64,000 nt of DNA from a virus: IMG/VR virus record IMGVR_UViG_3300023174_000074, positions 32,001 to 96,000 of that record; one strand, written 5' to 3'. Of the stretch, positions 4,616-60,036 are shown in pieces (the first letter of the stretch is position 1; every line of letters starts with the position of its first letter). A program made the position numbers and the translations under genes. The notes under the pieces are model-generated. The model did not search any database. It saw only the letters and a list, made by a program, of their open reading frames with translations, and was not told the DNA's origin.

Positions 4616-4995
4616 GGGTCATCAAGGTATTGATTGGCAGAGTTCGTTCTTTGAGATGCAGGCAGAGTTAGTATCGGAAACTCTTAAATAACCTATACGA
4701 AGCTTTAAACGGCAAAAAATCAGTTTGGGACGTTATCAACGCGTTTGGTACACCCGTAGCTGAGGTTGAGTTAGCTTACGCTGCATAACCTCCGGAGTCT
4801 CACTTACTCCGTTTAAAAAAATGTGAACACATTACTTCTTAGTGTCAGAAGCAAAATATCATTCAGTTAGTTGAAGAAAAGGAACTGCGTTAACCCAATC
4901 TTATATTTTGTAGAATTAGAAAATTTTACTAAGCCTGTGAATGAGTCCTTTGACTATCTGAGCAAGACGGGGGTTCAATTCCTCCATGATCCACC
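4616..4995 (+). ncRNA. ssrA: tmRNA
   Basis: acceptor stem GGGTCAT/ATGATCC with G3.U wobble, discriminator A then CC; T-arm GGGGG-TTCAATT-CCTCC; tag ORF 4711-4788 GKKSVWDVINAFGTPVAEVELAYAA*. Confidence 0.92.
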
Positions 4996-5002
4996 GACGC
5001 GA

Positions 5003-24872: not shown

Positions 24873-24963
24873 TAACGGTGGCGATTGGCGAAGTAAAAGC
24901 CTTGCACTACCGTTGATGTTCAGCACTACACTTGATGGCTTTTATTTTGCCAATTGCGTGTTA
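24873..24963 (-). repeat. orphan attC-like site A
   Basis: TAAC-GGTG-GCGATTGGCGAAGTAAAAGCC...GGCTTTTATTTTGCCAATTGC-GT-GTTA. Confidence 0.8.
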
Positions 24964-25015
24964 GCGGTTCGGGCTTCTCCGCTTTTAGAAGTCCAAAATT
25001 TAATAACAAAAAAAA

Positions 25016-25246
25016 ATGAAAAGAGAATTTAATGTTTACAAAAGTTGGTTCGCTGGATTTAGAGCAAAAGATTTGTTTCCAATATTCAGTTTTACCAAAA
25101 ATGTTCAAGGCTGGTTTTTTACTCGTGTATGGTCATTGAATTGGTTTACTTACGCTTTGTCGTTTAGTTTGACAAAAACAAGCGATTTGAACGAAGATAG
25201 AAGTTTGTCACACGAGAAAAATGTCAAACGGTATATGCTGTCTTAG
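25016..25246 (+). CDS. cassette-encoded hypothetical protein
   Basis: inside GTTAGCGGTTCGGGC...GCCTGACCGCTAAC. Confidence 0.6.
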   Translation: MKREFNVYKSWFAGFRAKDLFPIFSFTKNVQGWFFTRVWSLNWFTYALSFSLTKTSDLNEDRSLSHEKNVKRYMLS

Positions 25247-25255
25247 CCTGACCGC

Positions 25256-25304
25256 TAACGGATTGCAGCTATGCGCTCGTTTTAATGGCGCATAGGTGCT
25301 GTTA
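25256..25304 (-). repeat. orphan attC-like site B
   Basis: TAAC-GGATT-GCAGCTATGCGC...GCGCATAGGTGC-T-GTTA. Confidence 0.8.
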
Positions 25305-25886: not shown

Positions 25887-26295
25887 AAAAACCGCAATGC
25901 AAGAATTGTTTGATAATTTAGAATCAATTGATATAAAAGTACCAATTGGAGTTAAACAAATATTCCTTGAAAAAGAGAAAGAGCAAATAGCTGACACTTT
26001 CTACTCAGGTTATGAAGATAGAGATTTGTTCCAACACGGACATGATTATTACGATAAAATGTATGAAAGAAACGGTTGGCAAGGTATTATATTTCTTGGA
26101 GAAGTTGATGATGTAAAAATCTATTATGATAGTTATCATCCTGAACAAACATTGACAGTTGAATTAAATGAAGATAAAACGGAAATGGTTTATATCATTA
26201 GTCCGTATGATGATATTGAAATATTTGATGGAATTAAAAAAAATATTATTGTATCTGAAAAACCGACCACACTAGAAAAAACAATTAAAATATGA
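25876..26295 (+). CDS. hypothetical protein, paralog of 27119-27541
   Basis: near-identical sequence. Confidence 0.7.
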   Translation: MDNRKTAMQELFDNLESIDIKVPIGVKQIFLEKEKEQIADTFYSGYEDRDLFQHGHDYYDKMYERNGWQGIIFLGEVDDVKIYYDSYHPEQTLTVELNEDKTEMVYIISPYDDIEIFDGIKKNIIVSEKPTTLEKTIKI

Positions 26296-26702
26296 ACAAA
26301 AAAGAAATCATCAAAAAATGGAAAAAAAGCGGTCTATTAGATAACCTTACTAAAATGGATAAAGATAGTCCGATGTTAAAAGTTATTGAATCAATTAAAG
26401 AACAACGAATAAACGAATTTCCAAATATAGAACCAATGAATAAAGTAAACGAGGCTGGTTACAATGAATCAACCAAATTTGGTCCTTCAGAAAACAACCC
26501 ACCATACATCTCAGACGACTTTCAAATAGGTCCTGATGGTGCCTATGAACACAATGAAATAGTTCATATACAACAACAGTTAATCGATTTGTTATACTCA
26601 CAAGTAATAGACTTATCAATGATGTCTAAAATTGAATTAGGTGATAATGTCATTGCTGAGATTAAACGATTAAAATCTATTATAGATGAAAAGACTACTT
26701 AG
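26292..26702 (+). CDS. hypothetical protein
   Basis: ORF. Confidence 0.55.
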   Translation: MNKKEIIKKWKKSGLLDNLTKMDKDSPMLKVIESIKEQRINEFPNIEPMNKVNEAGYNESTKFGPSENNPPYISDDFQIGPDGAYEHNEIVHIQQQLIDLLYSQVIDLSMMSKIELGDNVIAEIKRLKSIIDEKTT

Positions 26703-49816: not shown

Positions 49817-51258
49817 GTAAAGTTAAAAAAAAACCAATAATAGATTTAGAATCTCTTAACACGGATCAGAAGACAGCTTTTGAAGATTTAAGGGATTTCG
49901 TTTGTGATAAGGGAGATGATAGCGTCTATGTGCTAAAAGGTTGGGCAGGAACAGGAAAGACCTATTGTGTGAGTGTGCTTGTCAGATATGTGCTCGAGGT
50001 GATACACCCGACACATAATTGGTATAGAATAGCAGTTACAGGACCAACCAATAAATCAGTGAGGGTTATTAAAAAAACCAGCGGGCTGAAAAATCCTAGG
50101 GTTTCGTTTCAAACCATTCATAAAATGCTTGGTCTAACCGAAAGGATAACCAAAGAAGGTGTACAGGAATTTGTTAATCAAGGGGATTTCCAACCAAAGA
50201 TAAAGACGGTAAAGCTACTTATTATCGACGAGGTTTCGATGCTGAATGATGATCTGTTTCAAGAAGTATTAAAATACAGAGACAAGATAAAAATTATCTG
50301 CATGGGAGATCCTGCACAGATTCCCCCTGTAGGTAAACCCGATTGTATTCCTTTTAGAGAAGAGCTTGCTGCAGGCTATAGAATTAAAACTCTTAGTCTA
50401 AAACAGATCATGCGTCAGAAGAAAGATAATGCTATTATCGAATCATCTGTGGCTATTAGATCTGAATTAGGTAGAGCTAAAAATCCAGTTGAACCCGTTA
50501 CAAAGCTAAATGAGAAAGGTGAAGGAATAGAATTTCTTAATCTCAATATTCCTGAGACAAGAAAAGGATTCTCAGAAATACTGAGACGATATTTTGTCAC
50601 CGATGAATTTAAAAAAGATTCTGAGTATGCAAAGATCATTGCATGGAGAAATAAAACTGTTGCAACCATGAATGATGTTATTCGTAAAGTTATCTACGGA
50701 GACGAAGCATTAGGATCAAAGATATTGGTTGGGGAAAAACTAATCGCAAACAATCCGATCATTCAAGGTGAGTCAATAGTTCTGAACACCAACGACGAAT
50801 TCAGTGTGGATAGTTTTACTATCGGTAGCGATGATCTTAGATATCACATATCAGATCAACCCGATGCCGAACCATTTCCAATAACACTAAAGTATTATGA
50901 AACTGTTGTTAGCTATCTTGATGATGAGGATGAAACGGTAAGGGTTAACATACAAATTCTACACGAGGACAGCGAGATGGATTTTAAAAAGCTGGCTAAT
51001 ATTCTAAAGCTTAGAGCTATAGAAAAGAAAGGCAAAGATAAAAGCTGGATAGTGTACTACAACTTTCTTAGAAAGTATGCTGATGTGAATTATGCTTATT
51101 GCACTAGCGCACACAAATCACAGGGAAGCACATACAATACAACATTTGTTCTGGAGGATGACATAAATCAAAATTTTAATATAATTGAAAAAAATAGAAT
51201 ACTTTATACCTCCTATACTAGAGCCAGTAGAAAGCTGTATGTACTTAGAAGATTTTAG
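49813..51258 (+). CDS. dda: Dda-like SF1B DNA helicase
   Basis: GWAGTGKT, IIDEVSM, GDPAQIPPV, HKSQGSTY, YTSYTRA. Confidence 0.9.
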   Translation: MSKVKKKPIIDLESLNTDQKTAFEDLRDFVCDKGDDSVYVLKGWAGTGKTYCVSVLVRYVLEVIHPTHNWYRIAVTGPTNKSVRVIKKTSGLKNPRVSFQTIHKMLGLTERITKEGVQEFVNQGDFQPKIKTVKLLIIDEVSMLNDDLFQEVLKYRDKIKIICMGDPAQIPPVGKPDCIPFREELAAGYRIKTLSLKQIMRQKKDNAIIESSVAIRSELGRAKNPVEPVTKLNEKGEGIEFLNLNIPETRKGFSEILRRYFVTDEFKKDSEYAKIIAWRNKTVATMNDVIRKVIYGDEALGSKILVGEKLIANNPIIQGESIVLNTNDEFSVDSFTIGSDDLRYHISDQPDAEPFPITLKYYETVVSYLDDEDETVRVNIQILHEDSEMDFKKLANILKLRAIEKKGKDKSWIVYYNFLRKYADVNYAYCTSAHKSQGSTYNTTFVLEDDINQNFNIIEKNRILYTSYTRASRKLYVLRRF

Positions 51259-52424
51259 AATCTACCCAAACTCCATCCGTCACTAATATATTTATCGATT
51301 TCTTGCACATCAACCCTAACTGATTTTTTTGATTTATTTATCCATTTTTTACCCCTTGATGAATTTCCCATGCCTTTTCGACTTTCGTCAGTGATATTTA
51401 ACTTATCTTTATCAACGATTCTTCCCAAACACCATCCCTGACATATCCATTTTTCTAGTTGGTCAGCCTTAACCTTTTTATTTTTATCAAAGCAATTATT
51501 TATCCAGATGGTATTTTTATGAACATTGCTCATTTTTAATTTAGCATCCGTTGATCTTTTCATCCCCTTACTTACGTGTCTCAATTCTCCAGATTCCAAT
51601 CTAGGATCATCTATTTTAACCCTCATTCCGTTACCGCTAACATCTTTAACTGGTATTGTTCCCTTAGTAACACCCTGTAATTCACCGGATATAAATCGAG
51701 GATCATTTCGATCCAATATTAAATTTTTGCCTCCATCCTTAACAACTACTTTATGTGTAAATTTATGAATTAGCTCACCACTTTTTAATCTTGGATCGTC
51801 GGTTTTTATTCTTATGTTATTACCATTTTTATCATTTACACATACTGTTCCTTTTATTATACCTGTCATTTTTTCATTTTTGAATTCGTCCTTATTAACA
51901 TAACGAATAATTCCATTTTTATCCCTTCCTACAGCATTGTTACAATGTATACTTTTTAGATCACCATTAAGATAATTAGGATCATCGGTTGAAACCTGTT
52001 GGGTCTTTCCCTCCCCGTCCTTAACAGTAACATATCCTGTTGATATAAATATTAATTCTCCGCTTAAGTACTCTGGATTATTAACTGAGGTCTGAAACGT
52101 ATCCCCTTTTTTATTTCTAACCGTGACAACTCCACAGCTTCCCCCTCCACCACCACCTAAAGTGATATTATATACATTTTCATTTAATATAAATTCGTTA
52201 CTTACTAGTTCTTTTTCTTTTTCTAACATTTTATTTCTACTATCAAAATCATACAATATAATTTTTTTAAATTTCTCTATTCCGTATTTTTTAATAGCTA
52301 GTTTAATTAATTTACCTGATCCCATATAGTTATCATTAATATTATATGTGGAATGACACCCAATATAGATTTTACTATTTACTAGATTTAATATTAAATA
52401 AATCAGATGATGTTTTTTCGCCAT
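51255..52424 (-). CDS. GIY-YIG homing endonuclease (Seg-like) with repeated DDPR..SGEL units
   Basis: LIYLILN...IYIGCHST...YMGSG. Confidence 0.85.
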   Translation of the reverse strand: MAKKHHLIYLILNLVNSKIYIGCHSTYNINDNYMGSGKLIKLAIKKYGIEKFKKIILYDFDSRNKMLEKEKELVSNEFILNENVYNITLGGGGGGSCGVVTVRNKKGDTFQTSVNNPEYLSGELIFISTGYVTVKDGEGKTQQVSTDDPNYLNGDLKSIHCNNAVGRDKNGIIRYVNKDEFKNEKMTGIIKGTVCVNDKNGNNIRIKTDDPRLKSGELIHKFTHKVVVKDGGKNLILDRNDPRFISGELQGVTKGTIPVKDVSGNGMRVKIDDPRLESGELRHVSKGMKRSTDAKLKMSNVHKNTIWINNCFDKNKKVKADQLEKWICQGWCLGRIVDKDKLNITDESRKGMGNSSRGKKWINKSKKSVRVDVQEIDKYISDGWSLGRF

Positions 52425-52456
52425 TTTGTTAGTTTATATATATATATATATCTAAC

Positions 52457-52521
52457 TATAGAATCGAATATACAGCCTACACCAGGCGAGTAAGAAAGTT
52501 TACGTCATGAGAAGATTCTAG
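52457..52521 (+). pseudogene. displaced duplicate of dda 3' end
   Basis: YRIEYTAYTR-(1-nt deletion)-SKKVYVMRRF* versus NRILYTSYTRASRKLYVLRRF*. Confidence 0.75.
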
Positions 52522-53312
52522 TAGCTTTCTCTGATACGGATAAACTTGCAGTCAAGAAATTCCTCGATAGCCTTTTGTCTTAGTCTATCCTTTTCTTTTA
52601 ATTCGTCATTTATATAGTGGTATTTTTCGTCCCATTCATAAACTGTGTTATTTTCTTTATCATATCCATCTACCCAATATCCAAGTTCTTTAACGTGAAA
52701 TTCACACCCGTTTTCTGCGTGTTGAATTCTAATCCCGGTTTCTTCCATTAGCTTATTAAAGTACTCGCAGCCTTTTTTGCTATATGGAGGATGGAATTTT
52801 TTATCGATTGCTTTAAGCTTATCAATAAAAATTACTCTTAGCTTTTTCCTAGTCTCCTCGTTATGGTGTTTCCCGAATTTAGTATCTCTTAATGAATTTT
52901 CCCAATTAGTTCTATGCTCATCACTCATCTTCTTTCCTTTATTCCATGGCGTGCTTGATCCCCATTCGGTATCTTTAATCCCATTCTTCCAATTGCTCTT
53001 ATATTCTTCACTCATTGGCTTACCCTTATTCCAAGGTTCATATCCTTCCTTGTGTACATAAGCCCAGCCCACAGCATTTGGTTGAACTTTCTTGCTGCAG
53101 CTTTTACCGCAATGTTCTCTGTATCCCTTAGCTATATTATTAAATGAAGCTTCCCTATCACACTGCTTGCATTTTATCTTCTCCCCATTTAAAACGTATT
53201 GATCATAATAATCCTTGGTATCTATTTTATGGTTCTGTTTTATGTGACTTCCGAATCCGTTATTTGACTTTGTTTCGAATCCGCATATCTTACATTTCTT
53301 GATATCTTCCAT
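52518..53312 (-). CDS. homing endonuclease-like protein (Zn finger, NUMOD3, PD-(D/E)XK/Vsr-like nuclease)
   Basis: CKIC..H..H, PWNKGK repeats, HAENG.E...YWVDGYD...YEWDEKYH. Confidence 0.78.
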   Translation of the reverse strand: MEDIKKCKICGFETKSNNGFGSHIKQNHKIDTKDYYDQYVLNGEKIKCKQCDREASFNNIAKGYREHCGKSCSKKVQPNAVGWAYVHKEGYEPWNKGKPMSEEYKSNWKNGIKDTEWGSSTPWNKGKKMSDEHRTNWENSLRDTKFGKHHNEETRKKLRVIFIDKLKAIDKKFHPPYSKKGCEYFNKLMEETGIRIQHAENGCEFHVKELGYWVDGYDKENNTVYEWDEKYHYINDELKEKDRLRQKAIEEFLDCKFIRIRESY

Positions 53313-53580: not shown

Positions 53581-53667
53581 TAACGGTTGGGTATATGTGA
53601 AGTACCTTACCACAAAACTTAAAAATTAAATAGAAACTTTAGGAGGTATTTCACATATACCTTGTTA
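53581..53667 (-). repeat. attC-like site 1
   Basis: TAAC-GGTTG-GGTATATGTGAAGTACCT...AGGTATTTCACATATACC-TT-GTTA. Confidence 0.85.
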
Positions 53668-53682
53668 TAACTCGTTTTAATT

Positions 53683-53925
53683 ATGACTCGATTTGAAAGA
53701 AAAAACAGAACTGAAATAGTTTATAAAGGATTCGGTGGTATTACCGATGCTTTTGACGATATGTATAAACAACTTTGGAGAATAAATGATGAAGAATATA
53801 ATTATTTATGTGAAACACTTACTGATGAAGAATTGAGTGATATTACGCCAGAATTTAAAACTATATCTCAAATAAAAAAAGCGATAACAATAGTAAATAC
53901 GGCTCTTTCTAAAAATGAGTTATAA
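53683..53925 (+). CDS. cassette 1 hypothetical protein
   Basis: stop is the TAA of next TAAC. Confidence 0.7.
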   Translation: MTRFERKNRTEIVYKGFGGITDAFDDMYKQLWRINDEEYNYLCETLTDEELSDITPEFKTISQIKKAITIVNTALSKNEL

Positions 53926-54011
53926 CGGTTGAGTGTATGTGTAGGTTTTTTGAAATTAAACTTTAATATATACTAAAAACTAAATAAAAAACTTACATAT
54001 ACACCTTGTTA
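53923..54011 (-). repeat. attC-like site 2
   Basis: TAAC-GGTTG-AGTGTATGTGTAGG...CTTACATATACACC-TT-GTTA. Confidence 0.85.
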
Positions 54012-54065
54012 TGTGCCGTTTTTTCTTATGGACTTCAAATTATTAATTTTTAAAATAAACAAAAT

Positions 54066-55133
54066 ATGAATTTAGCAAGTGTACAAAAAGTAATCAAATT
54101 AACCCCAATTGAGGGTGCAGATTTGATAGAAACAGCAACCGTATTAGGTTGGGAAATTGTAGTAAAAAAAGGCGAATACAAAGTGGGTGACTTATGTAGT
54201 TACATTCAGATTGATACAGTAGTTCCCGAACTACCCGAATATGAATTTTTAAGGGAACGGAAATTTAGAGTAAGAACAATCAAATTGCGTAAACAAATTT
54301 CGCAGGGGCTTGTAGTTCCTTTACCTAATGGTAAATGGAAAGAAGGCGATGATATTACAGAGGTTTTGGGAGTAAAGAAATACGAGAAGCCAGACAATAA
54401 CCCAGAACGCTATGAGAAGCCAAGAATGTCTAAAAAATGGTATAAGAAATGGATTTACTTGTTTAAATATAATTTCCTTTTCAAGTTGTTCCCAAAATTA
54501 CAAAGGTTAAGCCGTTCTCCATTCCCTAAAAATTTGGTATCAATTACCGATGAAGAAAGAATACAAAATATACCACATGTATTACAACAATACGCTGGTA
54601 AATTATTTGTAGTAAGCTATAAACTTGATGGTAGTAGTATTACAATAATTCATTCAAAGGTTTTTGGTAAAAGTAAGTTTAGAATTTGCAGTAGAAGATT
54701 TGAATTGCACGACAAAAAAAATGATTGGTACAAAGTATTTACTGATACTAATTTTAAATATGAAATTGCAAAACTTGTAAAGCACTTTAAAACTGATGAT
54801 ATAATTGTACAAGGCGAAGCAATAGGCAAATTTAACGGCAACCACCACAACTTACAAAAAGAGCAAATTAGGTTGTTTAATATCAATGTAAACGGCAAAA
54901 GATTAAACCAACAGGAATTTATAAAAACTTGTTTGGCAAATAATATTCCACATTGCCCAATGTATAAGGAAATTGTTTTAAATCACTCTTTACCCGAAAT
55001 ATTGGCTTTGTCTGAAATTAAAGACGTGATTAATCCATCAGTAGATGTTGAGGGTTTAGTTTGGCGTTGCGTTGAAGATAATTTAAGTTTCAAAGTGATA
55101 AACAATAAATATCTTCTTAAAAACAATGAGTAA
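54066..55133 (+). CDS. cassette 2: RNA ligase, DRB0094/Rnl5-like
   Basis: LASVQKV..PIEGAD.IE, KLRKQISQGL, TDEERIQN, KLDGSS, EGLVWR, FKVIN. Confidence 0.88.
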   Translation: MNLASVQKVIKLTPIEGADLIETATVLGWEIVVKKGEYKVGDLCSYIQIDTVVPELPEYEFLRERKFRVRTIKLRKQISQGLVVPLPNGKWKEGDDITEVLGVKKYEKPDNNPERYEKPRMSKKWYKKWIYLFKYNFLFKLFPKLQRLSRSPFPKNLVSITDEERIQNIPHVLQQYAGKLFVVSYKLDGSSITIIHSKVFGKSKFRICSRRFELHDKKNDWYKVFTDTNFKYEIAKLVKHFKTDDIIVQGEAIGKFNGNHHNLQKEQIRLFNINVNGKRLNQQEFIKTCLANNIPHCPMYKEIVLNHSLPEILALSEIKDVINPSVDVEGLVWRCVEDNLSFKVINNKYLLKNNE

Positions 55134-55157
55134 CGGGGTGTTTCCTAAAATGGCACA

Positions 55158-55205
55158 TAACGGTTGAGTGTAAAAAATCGTTTTAATGTTTTTTACACTT
55201 TGTTA
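55158..55205 (-). repeat. attC-like site 3
   Basis: TAAC-GGTTG-AGTGTAAAAAA...TTTTTTACACT-TT-GTTA. Confidence 0.85.
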
Positions 55206-55233
55206 TAAGTATGTAAAACAAAAATTATACAAT

Positions 55234-55401
55234 ATGAAAGAAAAAATTGAAAATAGGTTAAAAGAGTTATATGATGAATACAAACATGTAACTGATAAAG
55301 ATAGAGTTTGGATTAAACAAACAGGTGGTTTAACAAGAAGAGAACGAATTGAAAAATGTAAAATTCTAATAGAAGAGTTAGAAACATTATTAAATTCATA
55401 A
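55234..55401 (+). CDS. cassette 3 hypothetical protein
   Basis: ORF within about 27-bp complementary cassette ends. Confidence 0.6.
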   Translation: MKEKIENRLKELYDEYKHVTDKDRVWIKQTGGLTRRERIEKCKILIEELETLLNS

Positions 55402-55419
55402 TTTTTGTTTTATTACTTA

Positions 55420-55536
55420 TAACGGTCACAGATATATGTAGTTGTTTAACACAAAACTTAAATAATATGAATAAAGATAAAAATTTAGAACAAAACTTGG
55501 ATAAGAGTAATAAAAAATTACATATATCTGATGTTA
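55420..55536 (-). repeat. attC-like site 4
   Basis: TAAC-GGTCA-CAGATATATGTAG...TTACATATATCTG-AT-GTTA. Confidence 0.85.
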
Positions 55537-55739
55537 GTTGTAGTATTGATGATATTAAAAAATGGGTTGATAGTGAAATTGGTTACTATGACGAATGTGA
55601 TACTGTTGAAGATGCGATTGATGATATGTTACATGATTTCAAAACACATTTTTTAAATATTGATTACACAAAGAAATTTGATAAGGAAAACGAACTTATA
55701 AAATACTTCAAAAGTGAGTGGGAACAATATTACAACTAA
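55467..55739 (+). CDS. cassette 4 hypothetical protein
   Basis: starts in hairpin loop (LHISDVS), stops at TAAC. Confidence 0.7.
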   Translation: MNKDKNLEQNLDKSNKKLHISDVSCSIDDIKKWVDSEIGYYDECDTVEDAIDDMLHDFKTHFLNIDYTKKFDKENELIKYFKSEWEQYYN

Positions 55740-55862
55740 CGGTTTGCAGATAGGCGAAGGCAAGGATTTAGAAAACAAAAATTTAACTTTAAAATAGAAT
55801 TTAATATGAAAAAGAAATCATCATTTTACCACAACACCCTTGCTTTTGCTTATGTGCTGTTA
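55737..55862 (-). repeat. attC-like site 5
   Basis: TAAC-GGTTT-GCAGATAGGCGAAGGCAAGG...CCTTGCTTTTGCTTATGTGC-T-GTTA. Confidence 0.85.
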
Positions 55863-55991
55863 GTTGCAGTTTTTTTGTGGGTGGCAATTTCAAGCACCAT
55901 TCAAAGGTTCAAATGTGCTAAACTTACTGAAACAGAAATATTTATTAGAATACCAAAGTCTTTTGTGTGCGATTGGGCAAATTGCAACTAA
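55806..55991 (+). CDS. cassette 5 small membrane protein
   Basis: TM helix; starts in loop, stops at TAAC. Confidence 0.65.
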   Translation: MKKKSSFYHNTLAFAYVLLVAVFLWVAISSTIQRFKCAKLTETEIFIRIPKSFVCDWANCN

Positions 55992-56113
55992 CGGTTGATG
56001 CTTGGTGCAGTTGCGAAATTGAACGATAAACTTAATTAAAAAACGGAAACATGAATTGGATTAAAAATATTTTTAGAAAACGGAAACAAGCAATTGCATC
56101 CAAGCATTTGTTA
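55989..56113 (-). repeat. attC-like site 6
   Basis: TAAC-GGTT-GATGCTTGGTGCAGTTGC...GCAATTGCATCCAAGCATT-T-GTTA. Confidence 0.85.
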
Positions 56114-56311
56114 GCGGCTGGGCTGGAGTTTAGACGAACATCTCTTGGTCAAGCTGCATTTATTCCGAAAGGCACAACAAGTAATTATGCTGATAAAATA
56201 ATGTTCCCCGACAATTGGAGTAGAGCAGAATTTAGAGCAATGGCAGATTACATGGATGCGTTTCCTGACTGCACATTATTTTCAGATGGAAGTGGTAAGC
56301 CTTGCCGCTAA
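56051..56311 (+). CDS. cassette 6 hypothetical protein
   Basis: starts in loop, stops at TAAC. Confidence 0.65.
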   Translation: MNWIKNIFRKRKQAIASKHLLAAGLEFRRTSLGQAAFIPKGTTSNYADKIMFPDNWSRAEFRAMADYMDAFPDCTLFSDGSGKPCR

Positions 56312-56433
56312 CGGTTGGGTATAAATGAAGTGCCGATTTTGAAAAACAAATGTTCAATTAAAAACAAAAGATAAAATGGAAAACAAAAGTTCAATTACAG
56401 ACGAAAGTAAGGCATTGCAACAAGCCGATGTTA
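56309..56433 (-). repeat. attC-like site 7 (poorly paired arms)
   Basis: TAAC-GGTTGG...GTGCC...GGCATTGCAACAAGCCG-AT-GTTA. Confidence 0.7.
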
Positions 56434-56621
56434 GCAGCAGTGCGAGGTATATAATTGTTGATGAAAGCGTTTCAGCACATTGTTGTTTTGAATGCACAAT
56501 AATTGATACCGCAGCAGGTAAAGAAGCTTATGGTGATTACTGGAAGCGTTCAATGTGCGAAACATTCGACAGGGCAGAAGCTGAAATTATATGTGATGCG
56601 CTCAATAAGCATTTCTGCTAA
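56376..56621 (+). CDS. cassette 7 hypothetical protein
   Basis: ALQQADVS arm-encoded motif; SAHCCFE...ICDALN. Confidence 0.7.
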   Translation: MENKSSITDESKALQQADVSSSARYIIVDESVSAHCCFECTIIDTAAGKEAYGDYWKRSMCETFDRAEAEIICDALNKHFC

Positions 56622-56706
56622 CGATTTCGGGCTTGGCGAAGTGCCGCTACTCGAAACTTGAATTTTAGCACTAACTGTCCTGCGGCATTTTGCCAAACCC
56701 GTGTTA
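56619..56706 (-). repeat. attC-like site 8
   Basis: TAAC-GATTT-CGGGCTTGGCGAAGTGCCGC...GCGGCATTTTGCCAAACCCG-T-GTTA. Confidence 0.85.
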
Positions 56707-56754
56707 TGGGATAGTTTTAAAAACCTTTTAGGGTGGGCATTTAAAAACGAAATA

Positions 56755-57213
56755 ATGATAATAGCGATTGATTTTGATGGAACTTGCGTAACACACGAAT
56801 TTCCAAAAGTGGGCAAAGACATTGGTGCTGTGCCTGTATTAAAAGAGTTGGTTAAAAATAACCACCAATTAGTTTTGTTTACAATGCGAAGCGACATAGT
56901 TAATCCAACGGGAGAGGACAATGAATTGCACCTTGAAAGCGGAAACTATTTAACTGATGCAATTGATTGGTTTAAACAAAACGAAATACCACTTTACGGA
57001 ATACAAACCAACCCGATACAGCACACTTGGACTACAAGCCCGAAAGCATACGCACAACTTTACATTGATGATGCTGCTTTAGGATGCCCACTTTTGGTTG
57101 ACATTGTAAAAGATGGTGACGAAAGTATTAAGCAAGTTGGCAGACCTTATGTTAATTGGGAAAAGGTAAAAGAAATGCTAATTGATAAAGGGATTATTGA
57201 TGATGAAGACTAA
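56755..57213 (+). CDS. cassette 8: HAD-superfamily hydrolase (BT0820-like)
   Basis: IAIDFDGT, LFTMR, SPKAYAQLYIDD. Confidence 0.82.
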   Translation: MIIAIDFDGTCVTHEFPKVGKDIGAVPVLKELVKNNHQLVLFTMRSDIVNPTGEDNELHLESGNYLTDAIDWFKQNEIPLYGIQTNPIQHTWTTSPKAYAQLYIDDAALGCPLLVDIVKDGDESIKQVGRPYVNWEKVKEMLIDKGIIDDED

Positions 57214-57248
57214 CCCGTGCGGTGGGAAAAGGTTTTTAAAATTTCCCA

Positions 57249-57375
57249 TAACGTTTTGCAGCTATGCCCAGTTGGGCAATTTTAAAGACAAAATAATCAA
57301 CTTAAAATAAAGTAAATATGGAACACGAAAATATTAACAAACAAGAAGATGCCCAATTGGGTATAGGTGGTGTTA
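57249..57375 (-). repeat. attC-like site 9
   Basis: TAAC-GTTTTG-CAGCTATGCCCAGTTGGGCA...TGCCCAATTGGGTATAGGTG-GT-GTTA. Confidence 0.85.
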
Positions 57376-57530
57376 GCATCAGTGCCTTAACGGAATGGCT
57401 TAAAAGCGAATCTGTTTATACAGCATTGAGGTACGCATCAAAGAACCCATCAAATAGCGGTATGGATAATTGTGAAGATAAAAGTTATTTACATCTATAC
57501 AATTTAATTTGTCAGATTCGTAGGCATTGA
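57318..57530 (+). CDS. cassette 9 hypothetical protein
   Basis: starts in loop (QLGIGGVS). Confidence 0.65.
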   Translation: MEHENINKQEDAQLGIGGVSISALTEWLKSESVYTALRYASKNPSNSGMDNCEDKSYLHLYNLICQIRRH

Positions 57531-57533
57531 TGC

Positions 57534-57613
57534 TAACGGTTGCGGATATGAGAAGGGAAAAAATACCAATGAAAAATAAACAAGAATTTTTTACTTTCTT
57601 ATATCCGTTGTTA
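57534..57613 (-). repeat. attC-like site 10
   Basis: TAAC-GGTTG-CGGATATGAGAAGG...CTTTCTTATATCCG-TT-GTTA. Confidence 0.85.
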
Positions 57614-57679
57614 TCGGTCTGGTTTGGTTTCAATTTTTGTGCTGAGGGTTTAGAATTTCATCATTAAATAAATATACAA

Positions 57680-57943
57680 ATGGAAAACAATAATTGCATA
57701 GTAGAGAAAAAATTTCTGTTCTGGAAATGGAAAGCGGTGGAGCATCATTACAAGATGCACCGAATAAGTAAATTCATGGATTGCTCAACATCATTCCATG
57801 TTGATTGGGTATGTAAGTGCGGGGCAAGGTGGGAACAGAAATTTGTTGAACAGGACGAATTATTGTTGAAAGGAATATCAACTGAAATTCTAAATAAGAT
57901 TGACGGTTGGCATTCGCACTACTGCGGGAAGGAAAAAAATTGA
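57680..57943 (+). CDS. cassette 10 hypothetical protein
   Basis: ORF within complementary cassette ends. Confidence 0.65.
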   Translation: MENNNCIVEKKFLFWKWKAVEHHYKMHRISKFMDCSTSFHVDWVCKCGARWEQKFVEQDELLLKGISTEILNKIDGWHSHYCGKEKN

Positions 57944-57958
57944 AACCAAACTTGCCGA

Positions 57959-58084
57959 TAACGTTCCAAGTATTGCCGATGGTGGGGCATTACACCACCA
58001 AAGTTCAATTAACAAACTAAAGTTCAAAATATGCACACAGATTCAAAAAAGCACGAAACCCCCACTATTGGCAATACTTTGTTA
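57959..58084 (-). repeat. attC-like site 11
   Basis: TAAC-GTTCC-AAGTATTGCCGATGGTGGGG...CCCCACTATTGGCAATACTT-T-GTTA. Confidence 0.85.
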
Positions 58085-58321
58085 TATGCTGTTAAAAATG
58101 GGCAGTTGAAAAGGTGGTTTTACGAGTTTAAACACGGACACCCATTTCTACTTGACGAAGAAGCTACTATAATTGTTTCTACAAGATTAAGTGATAAAAG
58201 TGCTTCTTGGATGAATGATGAACAGATTAAAGAACTCGTAAAACTTAGAGTGAAAGCAATGTATAAAAAGAAATTTCCAAATGCAAAACGGTGGTCGTTG
58301 CCCATTTTTAATTGCATATAA
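58031..58321 (+). CDS. cassette 11 hypothetical protein
   Basis: starts in loop, stops at TAAC. Confidence 0.65.
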   Translation: MHTDSKKHETPTIGNTLLYAVKNGQLKRWFYEFKHGHPFLLDEEATIIVSTRLSDKSASWMNDEQIKELVKLRVKAMYKKKFPNAKRWSLPIFNCI

Positions 58322-58445
58322 CGGTTGAGGATTTATTTAGTTGCGAATAAAAAATTACAAAATATGATAACAGAAGAACAGTTGAAAAAAGCAGAAAAAG
58401 TTATTGCTGACTACAAAGCCGAGCAATTGAATAAATCCTATGTTA
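58319..58445 (-). repeat. attC-like site 12
   Basis: TAAC-GGTTG-AGGATTTATTTAGTTGC...GCAATTGAATAAATCCT-AT-GTTA. Confidence 0.85.
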
Positions 58446-58600
58446 TAAAATCGTTTCCGAGCGATGATGAAATACATAAGGAATCGTTGAGGGTGTGCAG
58501 GATAGAGGCAGAGTTTGTGCAAGGGGTAGCGTGGTGCTATCACGATAAAGGAGCAAAATGGATGATGGAAGAACTAAAGAAGCGAGGAAATGTTTTATAA
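58364..58600 (+). CDS. cassette 12 hypothetical protein
   Basis: starts in loop, stops at TAAC. Confidence 0.65.
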   Translation: MITEEQLKKAEKVIADYKAEQLNKSYVIKSFPSDDEIHKESLRVCRIEAEFVQGVAWCYHDKGAKWMMEELKKRGNVL

Positions 58601-58686
58601 CGGTTTTGGTGTATGAGAAGGTTTGCTTAGATAAATTTTCAAATTACAACTGAACTTAACAGCAAACTTTCTTATACACCTTGTTA
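58598..58686 (-). repeat. attC-like site 13
   Basis: TAAC-GGTTTT-GGTGTATGAGAAGGTTTGCT...AGCAAACTTTCTTATACACC-TT-GTTA. Confidence 0.85.
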
Positions 58687-58750
58687 TACACAGTGCGGTT
58701 TATTTGGTAGAAACTTTAATTAAAAAACAAATATAAAAAAATTAAAAATT

Positions 58751-59128
58751 ATGAAAAATTATTTATTGACAGATTTTAATACTGAAAGATGGAAAGGTAT
58801 TAATATAGAAAGTGCAGAAACACAAGTAGAAAAATTGAATGAAAAAATTAATAAAATTGGATGTTTATTTGGTGAAATAGGGAATCCAGAAACATTTGAG
58901 ATTTCGTTATCAAGAGCATCACATTCAATTAAAAATTTAACTTTTGTAGATGGTAAAGTTTATGGTGATGTTGAATTTTTGAATAATGATAACGGAAAAC
59001 AAGCAGACAATTTTATTAATAATATGAATTGTATATTTGGAATAAGAAGCACAGGAACATCAGAACAATATAAAGATGGTGAAATAGTTATCCATTCAAT
59101 TTTTACTTGGGATGTAATCAATGACTAA
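58751..59128 (+). CDS. cassette 13: T4 gp21-like prohead protease homolog, catalytic motifs altered
   Basis: FGEIGNP...LSRASHSI...G.VEFLN...GK...FGIRSTG. Confidence 0.6.
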   Translation: MKNYLLTDFNTERWKGINIESAETQVEKLNEKINKIGCLFGEIGNPETFEISLSRASHSIKNLTFVDGKVYGDVEFLNNDNGKQADNFINNMNCIFGIRSTGTSEQYKDGEIVIHSIFTWDVIND

Positions 59129-59174
59129 TAATTTTTAATTTTTATTAGATGAACTTGATTAGAAGTAGAAATGT

Positions 59175-59205
59175 AGCATTGTGTATAACTATTATATATA
59201 AGTAA
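59175..59205 (-). other. putative attI-like site (crossover core TAAC 59186-59189)
   Basis: last cassette end GCATTGTGTATAAC not followed by a hairpin, 16 bp before integrase. Confidence 0.6.
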
Positions 59206-60036
59206 GTGTACCATAAACCATTTAATATCAACACTTTGAATCAAAAAATTATAAAGATTTGTGAGGAAAAGTTTATATATTTAAACTACTCACCAAGAAC
59301 AAAAGACAATTATATGTGTCATATTAAAGATTTTCTTAATACTCTTAATGACAAACAGATAATTCATTGTAGTTCCAAAGATTTTCAATCATATCTAGAT
59401 AATTATCAATTCACCTCTGTTTCTCAACAAAACCAGGTTATTAACGCTATTAGATTTCTGTATAAGTACGGACTTGATAAGAAATACGATAAGGTATCGT
59501 TTAAAAGACCAAAATCGGAAAAGAAGCTACCCAGAGTTATTGATGGTGAATTTATAAAAGAAAAACTAAACAAGATTGGTAATCTGAAACACAAAGCAAT
59601 CTTAACACTAACCTATTCAGTTGGATTAAGGGTGTCTGAAATAGTTAATCTAAAGATTGAAGATATTGACTCAAAAAGGATGCTTATACACATCAAAAAC
59701 GCAAAAGGCAGAAAGGATAGGATAGTTCCGCTGTCATTAACTGTTTTAACTTTGCTAAGAGAATATTTTAAAGAGTATAAACCTTCAGATTATCTTTTTA
59801 ATGGGCAAAATTCTTCATTGTATTCAATACGAAGCTGTCAGCAAATTTATAAAAAATACATTGATGACGGGTCATCAATACATACACTAAGGCATTCCTC
59901 TTTCACCAACCTATTAGAATCAGGAACTGATCTAAGGATTATTCAAAAAATAGCAGGTCATTCCAGCTCTAAAACAACAGAAATTTACACACACGTCTCA
60001 AATAGTCTTTTAAGTAGGATAAAACTTCCAATTTAA
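59206..60036 (+). CDS. tyrosine recombinase/integrase (IntI-related, no IntI-specific insertion)
   Basis: YSPRTKDNY SAM-like N-terminus; GLRVSE, KGRKDR, HTLRHS, AGH, TTEIYTH. Confidence 0.92.
   Translation: MYHKPFNINTLNQKIIKICEEKFIYLNYSPRTKDNYMCHIKDFLNTLNDKQIIHCSSKDFQSYLDNYQFTSVSQQNQVINAIRFLYKYGLDKKYDKVSFKRPKSEKKLPRVIDGEFIKEKLNKIGNLKHKAILTLTYSVGLRVSEIVNLKIEDIDSKRMLIHIKNAKGRKDRIVPLSLTVLTLLREYFKEYKPSDYLFNGQNSSLYSIRSCQQIYKKYIDDGSSIHTLRHSSFTNLLESGTDLRIIQKIAGHSSSKTTEIYTHVSNSLLSRIKLPI

Follow-up and report, generated by a model that had tools for sequence, protein, structure and literature searches.

Hairpin-bounded gene cassettes beside a Xer-like recombinase gene point to an integron-like platform in a T4-like phage

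The question raised by a 64,000-nt stretch of viral DNA (hereafter the window), which spans bases 32001-96000 of the 126,808-base IMG/VR record IMGVR_UViG_3300023174_000074 (judged about 46% complete), is whether a phage can own a gene-capture device of the integron type. Integrons are regarded as devices of bacteria, and more recently of archaea too, whose operation requires the IntI integrase. The initial annotation of this stretch described 13 hairpins bounded by TAAC and GTTA, cassettes with their own complementary ends and, right after them, the gene of an atypical tyrosine recombinase, and proposed a phage integron that captures and shuffles genes. We conclude that the array is very probably a phage-borne, integron-like cassette platform, on the strength of its site anatomy, the pairing of the cassette ends, the presence of such sites beside the recombinase gene in 46 of 50 related loci and the turnover of the cassettes; what did not stand is the designation as an integron in the strict sense, the enzyme being devoid of the IntI insertion. 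Cassette recombination itself we infer from sequence comparisons.

All 13 start positions proposed for the hairpins carry TAAC, and each cassette begins with the C of a TAAC and is closed by the TAA of the following one (Table 1), boundaries that were taken from identical cassettes present in other arrays. On the + strand, a cassette reads as follows: C, a 5-nt spacer (mostly GGTTG), a left arm, a loop, a right arm, TT, GTTA, a segment X, a leader with its open reading frame (ORF), a segment X' complementary to the cassette's own X, and TAA. Site lengths in the window range from 48 to 127 nt and cluster at 48 nt and at about 80, 88 and 125 nt, classes that are also those of the related loci described below (48-131 nt for the window and the relatives together). 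The sequence TAACGGTT occurs nine times in the entire record, always on the + strand and always inside 53581-58598. The count of 13 hairpins has to be qualified: an ungapped stem detector recognized the inner stem (L stem) in 11 of the 13 sites (scores 11.1-18.1), site 6 has a stem with a 1-nt indel, and the L stem of site 7 is at chance level only, most of the inner stem being lost. The GTTA of site 7 (R', at 56430) was positioned via the pairing of its cassette ends. Over the whole record, the detector returned 16 candidates on the + strand and 3 on the - strand, 11 of which lie in the array and 2 at 24873-25304. The sequence to the left of site 1 has no partner anywhere in the record at up to three errors and therefore marks the far boundary of the array; a missing "cassette 0" to the left of 53581 was considered and rejected on the same ground. 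This left flank is also found in a related locus (L031), there with a different first hairpin.

Table 1. Coordinates (window numbering) of the array, its sites and cassettes, and the associated features
Feature	Coordinates	Strand	Site length	Cassette	ORF	Remarks
Whole array	53581-59189	+				13 cassettes
Site 1	53581-53667	+	87 nt	53584-53925	53683-53925, 80 aa	covariance model 84.6 bits
Site 2	53923-54011	+	89 nt	53926-55160	54066-55133, 355 aa	RNA ligase
Site 3	55158-55205	+	48-nt class	55161-55422	55186-55401, 71 aa	covariance model 40.8 bits
Site 4	55420-55536	+	117 nt	55423-55739	55467-55739, 90 aa	ORF start in loop, stop is the next core's TAA
Site 5	55737-55862	+	126 nt	55740-55991	55806-55991, 61 aa	ORF start in loop; hydrophobic N-terminal stretch
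Site 6	55989-56113	+	125 nt	55992-56311	56051-56311, 86 aa	1-nt indel in stem
Site 7	56309-56433	+	125 nt	56312-56621	56376-56621, 81 aa	degenerate L stem; phrog_19733
Site 8	56619-56706	+	88 nt	56622-57251	56701-57213, 170 aa	phrog_1238
Site 9	57249-57375	+	127 nt	57252-57536	57318-57530, 70 aa	
Site 10	57534-57613	+	80 nt	57537-57961	57680-57943, 87 aa	
Site 11	57959-58084	+	126 nt	57962-58321	58031-58321, 96 aa	
Site 12	58319-58445	+	127 nt	58322-58600	58364-58600, 78 aa	
Site 13	58598-58686	+	89 nt	58601-59188	58751-59128, 125 aa	
attI-like junction	59186-59205	+				last cassette end and TAAC, then TATTATATATAAG in place of a hairpin
Tyrosine recombinase	59206-60036	+			276 aa from first GTG	Xer-like
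Homing-endonuclease-like genes (two)	51255-53312	-				free-standing; GIY-YIG/SegE-like and NUMOD3; between helicase and array
Second site pair	24873-24963 and 25256-25304 (span 24873-25304)	+			25016-25246, 76 aa	without recombinase; ORF enclosed by the pair

The reading of the array as a cassette platform is carried first by the pairing of the cassette ends. As proposed in the initial annotation, the stretch that follows GTTA finds its best partner just ahead of the next TAAC in all 13 cassettes (rank first of 13); the own-end scores are 6-18, whereas the 156 wrong pairings average 1.49 and do not exceed 7, and the three end pairs quoted earlier map to 54008/55158, 56703/57249 and 58683/59186. 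In the array, the halves of the outer helix (X'TAAC and GTTAX) sit at opposite cassette ends and therefore the helix closes only in a circular cassette, so that the earlier claim of a full stem restricted to the excised circle holds. End complementarity that closes only in a circle is the classical argument for integron cassettes. Of 287 cassettes of the relatives, 216 pair better with their own end than with any other in the array; the mean end-pair score is 7.95 for the own partner, as against 1.91 for the remaining candidates and 1.80 for the ends on either side of a single hairpin.

The stems themselves covary. Across an alignment of 91 distinct sites, each 85-92 nt long and drawn from the window or its relatives, TAAC and GTTA are invariant (91/91) and 14 of the 16 L-stem pairs change on both sides, with a covariation score of 0.589 as compared with 0.148 in shuffles and 0.05-0.13 when the partner was slid. 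The corresponding proportions of paired cells are 99.0%, 75.6% and 32-53%, figures that are inflated since the detector demands a stem. A G.T pair is fixed in 89 of the 91 sites and a second position is G.T in 55, while position 7 beyond the core in the outer helix (R-box) is T.G in 169 of 199 cassettes; these fixed wobbles pair on the + strand only, as they would be A.C on the other strand. A covariance model, one of the checks initially suggested, was trained on this alignment, which includes four window sites. Applied to both strands of the 64 kb, it recovered 12 of the 13 array sites (E 2e-13 to 0.09), all on the + strand, eight of its window matches being sites outside the training set; site 7 was missed, and the match to site 6 was weak (E 0.089), with a misplaced 3' end. 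Elsewhere in the window, it matched only the site at 24873, apart from a - strand echo of site 1. No Rfam family matched the sites, the only match in that search being a tmRNA elsewhere.

Could the hairpins act as RNA instead? Elements for processing, termination or control of translation start, lying by chance next to an unrelated phage integrase or dimer resolvase, would agree with every fixed non-Watson-Crick pair being G.T on the coding strand, and also with the finding that 93 of 156 long sites contain the start of their ORF (the ATGs of the window stand 54-82 nt ahead of the GTTA end of the site). We consider this explanation highly unlikely, because pairing between cassette ends over 250-1,200 nt has no obvious use in RNA, whereas it is exactly what a circle junction needs, and because DNA breakpoints at TAAC, identical units that move between arrays and a conserved TAAC junction before the recombinase gene (see below) would be left unexplained. 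An RNA role and a recombination role of the hairpins could coexist.

Related loci allowed both the company of the sites with the recombinase gene and the fate of the cassettes to be followed. A relative of the recombinase is encoded by 216 of 244 candidate viral stretches, 80 of which were kept for analysis (59-96% identity, many contigs of 100-360 kb). Upstream of the recombinase genes, the detector found 344 + strand sites in 478 kb, as against 17 in 661 kb downstream (five duplicate loci included), and 13 of these 17 are confined to two loci. A site lies within 1.5 kb upstream of the gene in 46 of the 50 non-duplicate loci with at least 1.5 kb of upstream DNA. The cassettes, by contrast, turn over: 383 units yielded 368 ORFs of at least 35 aa, which fall into 304 blastp families, 259 of them singletons (several three-member families are duplicate loci). 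Whether cassette order is identical in all relatives had been raised as a decisive point, and it is not. Indeed, the closest relative with upstream DNA (L032) has a recombinase 95% identical and a helicase flank 95.6% identical to those of the window and has no cassette in common with it, and three other loci (L009, L026 and L027) contain the same cassettes in different orders.

The limits of the moving unit were read from cassettes shared by different arrays. In six such pairs, the upstream hairpin and the body are 93-100% identical, as compared with 47-56% for the preceding sequence and 53-62% for the next hairpin. Base-level identity starts at TAAC and ends at the next TAAC even with unrelated neighbouring hairpins, and cassettes that are 98-100% identical are found in unrelated contexts with limits exactly at TAAC. 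Comparison of non-duplicate loci gave 14 internal high-scoring segment pairs (HSPs) with an identity of 95% or more, seven of which end at TAAC on both sides; the left ends of HSPs of at least 200 nt accumulate at -12 to 0 of TAAC. The window cassette of site 11 recurs in another locus (L056) at 83% identity, again with TAAC at both limits. Because the hairpin that accompanies identical cassettes is the one upstream of the ORF, not the one downstream, the mobile unit consists of a hairpin and the ORF that follows it, with the crossover on the TAAC side. The converse unit (an ORF and the hairpin that follows, with crossover at GTTA) was rejected, since shared cassettes keep the upstream hairpin; it would also split seven of the 13 window ORFs. 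In seven of the 13 window cassettes and in 52 of 337 cassettes of the relatives, the ORF terminates at the TAA of the following core; a further 49 of the latter stop 12 nt earlier.

Shuffling of this kind calls for comparison with a device already described in T4-type phages. According to the accessible parts of the published accounts, PeSLs are stem-loops that bring together promoter and terminator motifs and are exchanged by homologous recombination, no recombinase having been found (Arbiol et al. 2010, PMC2839356); they share with the present array small ORFans in plastic T4-type regions, stem-loop modules, shuffling and proposed circles, and their authors compared them with integrons (PMC2839356; Comeau et al. 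2014, PMC4122927). If our hairpins were of the PeSL type, the array would be a hyperplastic T4-like region shuffled by the homologous recombination of the phage, the recombinase being uninvolved. The record does encode a T4-type capsid protein, and PeSL and ORFan cassettes as well as mini-circles are described in T4-like phages without a recombinase (PMC2839356, PMC4122927, as far as their accessible parts go). Moreover, hairpin families are common to many unrelated cassettes, and the hairpin and leader are conserved as a module (in many arrays, that of site 13, 58598-58757, precedes ORFs that are unrelated). The platform has very variable flanks: no platform synteny was found among the related loci, the helicase flank being present in 2 of 80 and an Rnl1-type ligase in 5 of 80, and 607 ORFs downstream of related recombinases fall into 476 families. 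Deletions between near-identical 48-nt hairpins would also look alike. Homologous exchange, however, leaves the complementarity of each cassette's two ends unexplained, and identity switches at TAAC beside unrelated hairpins, where only about 4-5 bases are shared. Nor do the sites join a strong sigma-70-like promoter to a terminator: sigma-70-like promoters number 23, compared with 32.9 +/- 4.9 in shuffles, and terminator-like elements 5, compared with 3.0 +/- 2.0, in a scan that leaves Bacteroidota-type promoters aside, and the Bacteroidota-type promoter TAnnTTTG occurs only twice in the array, both times within ORFs. Unlike PeSL cassettes, the present ones thus have sites with a TAAC/GTTA core, own-end pairing, TAAC-precise breakpoints and an adjacent recombinase, beside whose gene the sites cluster in relatives. 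We therefore regard a PeSL-type origin of the array as very unlikely.

The tyrosine recombinase gene announced right after the array, with its catalytic residues, is borne out by a match to Pfam Phage_integrase (PF00589, 1.8e-33), GLRVSE, KGxKDR, HxLRHS, GHS and IYTH aligning with XerA and IntI4; the SAM-like domain matches Phage_int_SAM_4 (Pfam). Its true start is uncertain, because relatives begin matching at residues 1-17. The enzyme is also atypical for an integrase, as had been noticed. Its scores lie below every Xer family cut-off and below that of the integron integrases (bits/cut-off: NF040815 XerA, 176.3/220; TIGR02249, 145.3/265; PRK15417, 93.7/435; XerC, 142.2/335; XerD, 141.2/330), and the best match among solved structures is XerA (PDB 4a8e, 7.6e-33). 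In an alignment to IntI4, residues 27-187 and 219-270 of the enzyme correspond to residues 17-180 and 260-311; 31 residues stand where IntI4 has 79, and for this reason the IntI-specific insertion is absent.

Directly before the recombinase gene, the window contains a conserved junction, TAAC followed by TATTATATATA. In most of the related loci listed, TAAC followed by TAT(T/C)ATATATA stands just before the gene, and the bases ahead of TAAC vary by locus; conserved on one side and variable on the other, the junction therefore looks as expected of a docking site loaded with different cassettes. Within the array region, the motif TATATA[TA]A occurs once, at this junction. In the arrays of close relatives, the newest cassettes are not clearly at the junction end.

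These elements suggest the following mechanism. The folded + strand would mimic a Xer-type core site, with about 15 bp in its R arm, 16-20 bp in its L arm and, between them, a 6-nt, partly unpaired centre in which CGGTTG faces TTG. This fold would be bound by the neighbouring Xer-like recombinase, which would cut between TAA and C in the 5' arm and exchange one strand, either with another hairpin (excision) or with TAAC followed by TATTATATATA before its own gene (insertion); replication would resolve the product of strand exchange, as in integrons and the CTX phage. The + strand would be the strand used, being the only one that can fold through the fixed G.T pairs. Given the usual polarity of tyrosine recombinases, a cut adjacent to the outer arm would have to fall within the 5' arm; we therefore propose that it is the + strand that recombines and that the cut lies between TAA and C. 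There is a precedent for such substrates: a Xer enzyme can use a folded single-stranded hairpin that mimics a duplex core site, as is the case for the attP site of the CTX phage. Cassettes may be expressed by read-through or from their own leader. All 13 cassette ORFs lie on the strand of the recombinase gene and upstream of it, so that they point towards the recombinase; because they do so, and often start inside their own site, an expression logic of the Pc type is absent.

Several observations weigh against this reading. Sites are missing beside the recombinase gene in 4 of the 50 loci, and seven of the 14 high-identity HSPs are not bounded by TAAC on both sides, some of these corresponding to missed sites or near-identical 48-nt hairpins; excision between such hairpins could equally be homologous recombination. 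In one pair of loci (L057 and L059), the left flank of the first cassette (cassette 0) is 100% and the ORF body 88% identical, and the hairpins belong to the 88- and 48-nt classes; the hairpin has therefore been exchanged without the body, which a strict hairpin-plus-body unit does not predict. As to the enzyme, it is devoid of the insertion by which classical integrases use folded sites, and its link to the sites is one of adjacency alone. The sites used for covariation were chosen by a detector that demands a stem, so that the percentage of paired positions is partly built in, and the G.T bias would fit an RNA role too, the + strand being the coding strand. Finally, no recombination products were seen among the contigs of public runs, which break at hairpins. 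All the contig joints listed have sides of at most 33 letters and were hence not counted. Loose contig ends occur just before site 2 (X3, X4 and X6) and site 8 (X7), and one foreign end recurs at both; they hint at other neighbours in other samples and are not evidence of excision.

How close is the platform to a classical integron? The attC sites of integrons are imperfect hairpins of about 57-141 nt with AAC...GTT cores, an unpaired spacer and a variable loop. Our array has much in common with integrons, especially the sedentary chromosomal ones: a tyrosine recombinase with its catalytic residues beside an array of one-gene cassettes; imperfect, attC-like hairpins with a YAAC...GTTR core, an unpaired spacer, a variable loop and discrete length classes; R-boxes that are cassette-specific and completed by the cassette's own ends, the core being the place of the crossover; a docking site that is not a hairpin by the 5' end of the recombinase gene (a candidate in the phage) and the same site polarity; a huge diversity of cassettes, mostly of unknown function; and site families shared within a lineage. 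It differs in its enzyme, which has 276 aa and lacks the insertion typical of the IntI clade (TIGR02249, 145 bits for a cut-off of 265), and in its sites, which display an R-box pairing of 10-25 nt, a 3-nt asymmetric spacer and fixed G.T pairs, no extrahelical bases being seen among those aligned. The layout is another difference. Viewed on the recombining strand, the textbook integron consists of cassettes, attI and intI reading away, with the ORFs on the other strand. The phage shares this order and the polarity of the recombinase gene. Its ORFs, by contrast, are on the recombining strand and face the recombinase, each starting within its own hairpin or shortly after it, instead of being oriented away from intI and expressed from Pc. 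Moreover, the host here is a T4-like giant phage. There is thus a high probability that the platform works like an integron, and it falls outside the family as defined by IntI.

Xer systems are the other obvious comparison, since the best matches of the enzyme are of the Xer type (NF040815 XerA and PDB 4a8e). Besides scoring below every Xer cut-off, the enzyme is accompanied by many sites and cassettes, not by one dif-like site, and no dimer-resolution context is apparent.

Related enzymes and sites also exist in bacteria. The top bacterial relatives of the recombinase are 42-50% identical and mostly from Bacteroidota, the exception being a 67% fragment on a 2-kb contig. In 15 of 80 bacterial loci, the detector placed sites downstream of the gene; 30 sites are on the opposite strand and 2 share the strand of the gene (L086 and L121), and the covariance model built on phage sites matched 22 sites in the bacterial loci, 21 of them downstream on the opposite strand. 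Flavobacterium saccharophilum has five sites of about 126 nt (L138) and Desulfitobacterium sp. Sab5 six sites of about 69 nt (L141), with own-end pairing and ORFs opposite to the site polarity in both. The same site family was observed in other bacterial loci (among them L134, L136 and L140), the genera including Arundinibacter, Algoriphagus and Pseudopedobacter. The recombinases associated with these arrays (42-48% identity) also lack the IntI insertion, and score 220-229 bits for a cut-off of 220 with NF040815, the title of which is "site-specific tyrosine recombinase/integron integrase". The bacterial XerA-like arrays thus resemble the phage platform in their site family, own-end pairing and type of recombinase; they differ from it in that the sites are downstream and on the opposite strand, the ORF comes before the site (the classical order), the gene reads towards the array, and the recombinase has an N-terminal extension of about 75 aa. 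Such arrays in Bacteroidota and some Firmicutes are possibly an under-recognised integron variant, because the IntegronFinder 2.0 survey, in its accessible part, reports almost no complete integrons in Bacteroidetes and Firmicutes. One of the two loci with a site on the gene's strand, L086, is a 36-kb contig from a gammaproteobacterial metagenome-assembled genome with the phage-type layout, i.e. a + strand site upstream of a gene for a 266-aa recombinase (50% identical); a phage origin of this contig, misplaced in a bacterial bin, is probable.

That a single phage picked up a piece of a bacterial integron, or an attC cluster, by chance would agree with the finding, in bacterial chromosomes, of this site family next to related recombinases, and it has published counterparts: Qi et al. 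2023 (PMC9892861) describe 21 phages that carry bacterial integron fragments or clusters of at least two attC sites without an integrase, which were tested with the bacterial IntI1 and recombined by it. The many viral relatives, at 59-96% identity, as compared with 42-50% for the best bacterial ones bar the 67% fragment, argue against such an event, and so do the opposite arrangement of the bacterial loci (30/32 detector sites and 21/22 model matches on the opposite strand, downstream) and the phage-type cassette genes (RNA ligase, orphan methylases, Tad6); we hold it to be extremely unlikely. The phages of Qi et al. resemble ours in having attC-type sites and cassettes, including in virulent phages and a phage of Polaribacter (Bacteroidota), and orphan DNA methyltransferases as cargo. 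They differ in that the accessible part of the report (PMC9892861) describes no phage lineage that possesses a non-IntI recombinase of its own or a docking site, or in which cassettes turn over among relatives. One of the 17 attC clusters of that study (PMC9892861, accessible part) might belong to the present site family. In the literature searched, which left subscription journals and supplementary files outside, no paper was found to describe such a platform as native to phages.

The array's host is, judging by gene content, a large T4-like phage, because the record encodes a Gp23-type (T4) capsid protein (55.4 bits, over the cut-off), a Dda-like helicase (upstream of the array), two RNA ligases and two GIY-YIG/NUMOD endonucleases (Pfam). 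The public runs that contain this stretch are lake and freshwater metagenomes, and among GenBank phages neither the region nor the enzyme has a close relative, the top recombinase identity being 38.5%.

What do the cassettes carry? The RNA ligase of the window combines a PHA02142 OB fold and an RNA_ligase domain (Pfam; phrog_968), and the 170-aa protein of the site 8 cassette has relatives in other large phages. None of the ten small window cassette ORFs compared with Pfam gave a match, and one of the seven compared with PHROG did, to a family of unknown function. We also surveyed 115 cassette ORFs of at least 100 aa, one per family, against Pfam. Three encode N6_N4 DNA methylases, and one each an MT-A70 protein, a D12 methylase, a Tad6 Thoeris inhibitor, an ART-PolyVal ADP-ribosyltransferase, an RNA ligase, an Rv2179c-like exoribonuclease, a YopX protein and a GNAT protein; about 100 of the 115 matched no Pfam family. 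The cargo thus seems to be made up of accessory genes, several of which would be of the counter-defence type, as judged by family name only.

With less assurance than for the array itself, we lean towards a broader view, in which giant T4-type freshwater phages run an integron of their own: a compact Xer-like recombinase acting on folded single-stranded hairpins would keep and trade, among unrelated phages, a very large pool of one-gene cassettes, many of them for counter-defence, and phages and hosts could share this pool. If so, a plain Xer-like enzyme can run the folded-hairpin chemistry of cassettes, which bears on the origin of integrons from Xer systems, and virulent giant phages own a dedicated site-specific route by which to gain, lose and reorder accessory genes, which would explain part of the ORFan-rich plastic regions in T4-like genomes. 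The arrays could be an inventory of genes for counter-defence (orphan DNA methylases, a Thoeris inhibitor, ADP-ribosyltransferases, RNA ligases), a viral mirror, if the view is correct, of the bacterial integrons that store anti-phage defence genes, and the larger ORFs that match no Pfam family would be rich ground for new ones. As the sites are short and well defined, the claim can be put directly to standard recombination assays.

Sites are not confined to the main array. The second site pair of the window encloses a cassette with its own complementary ends (the 24873 site scores 49.7 bits with the covariance model); no partner was found in the record for the outer ends of the pair. The first hairpin of this locus is 88% identical to one in L027. 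In two related loci, more + strand site clusters lie 8-10 kb downstream of the recombinase gene (about 18274-20559 in L031 and about 8947-11519 in L065), and are therefore taken to represent a second array in each of these phages. The start of a non-array gene of the window (ORF 26292-26702; window 26287-26441) is 76% identical to part of a cassette found in L009 (1635-1789) and L026 (207-361), a match that hints at traffic between the arrays and the rest of the genome.

In the window, the two homing-endonuclease-like genes separate the helicase gene from the array; in L032, the array begins about 115 nt past the helicase match. A cluster of TAACGGT at 104-105 kb of the record, considered as a possible second array, was rejected, as it belongs to a leucine-rich-repeat protein gene. 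The tmRNA matched in the Rfam search lies on the + strand of the window at 4616-4996 (48.1 bits for a gathering score of 47, full model length); ARAGORN reported neither a tmRNA nor a tRNA over the window. Beyond the window, at 103670-105215 of the record, stand two tandem genes made of repeats of about 66 nt of the leucine-rich type.

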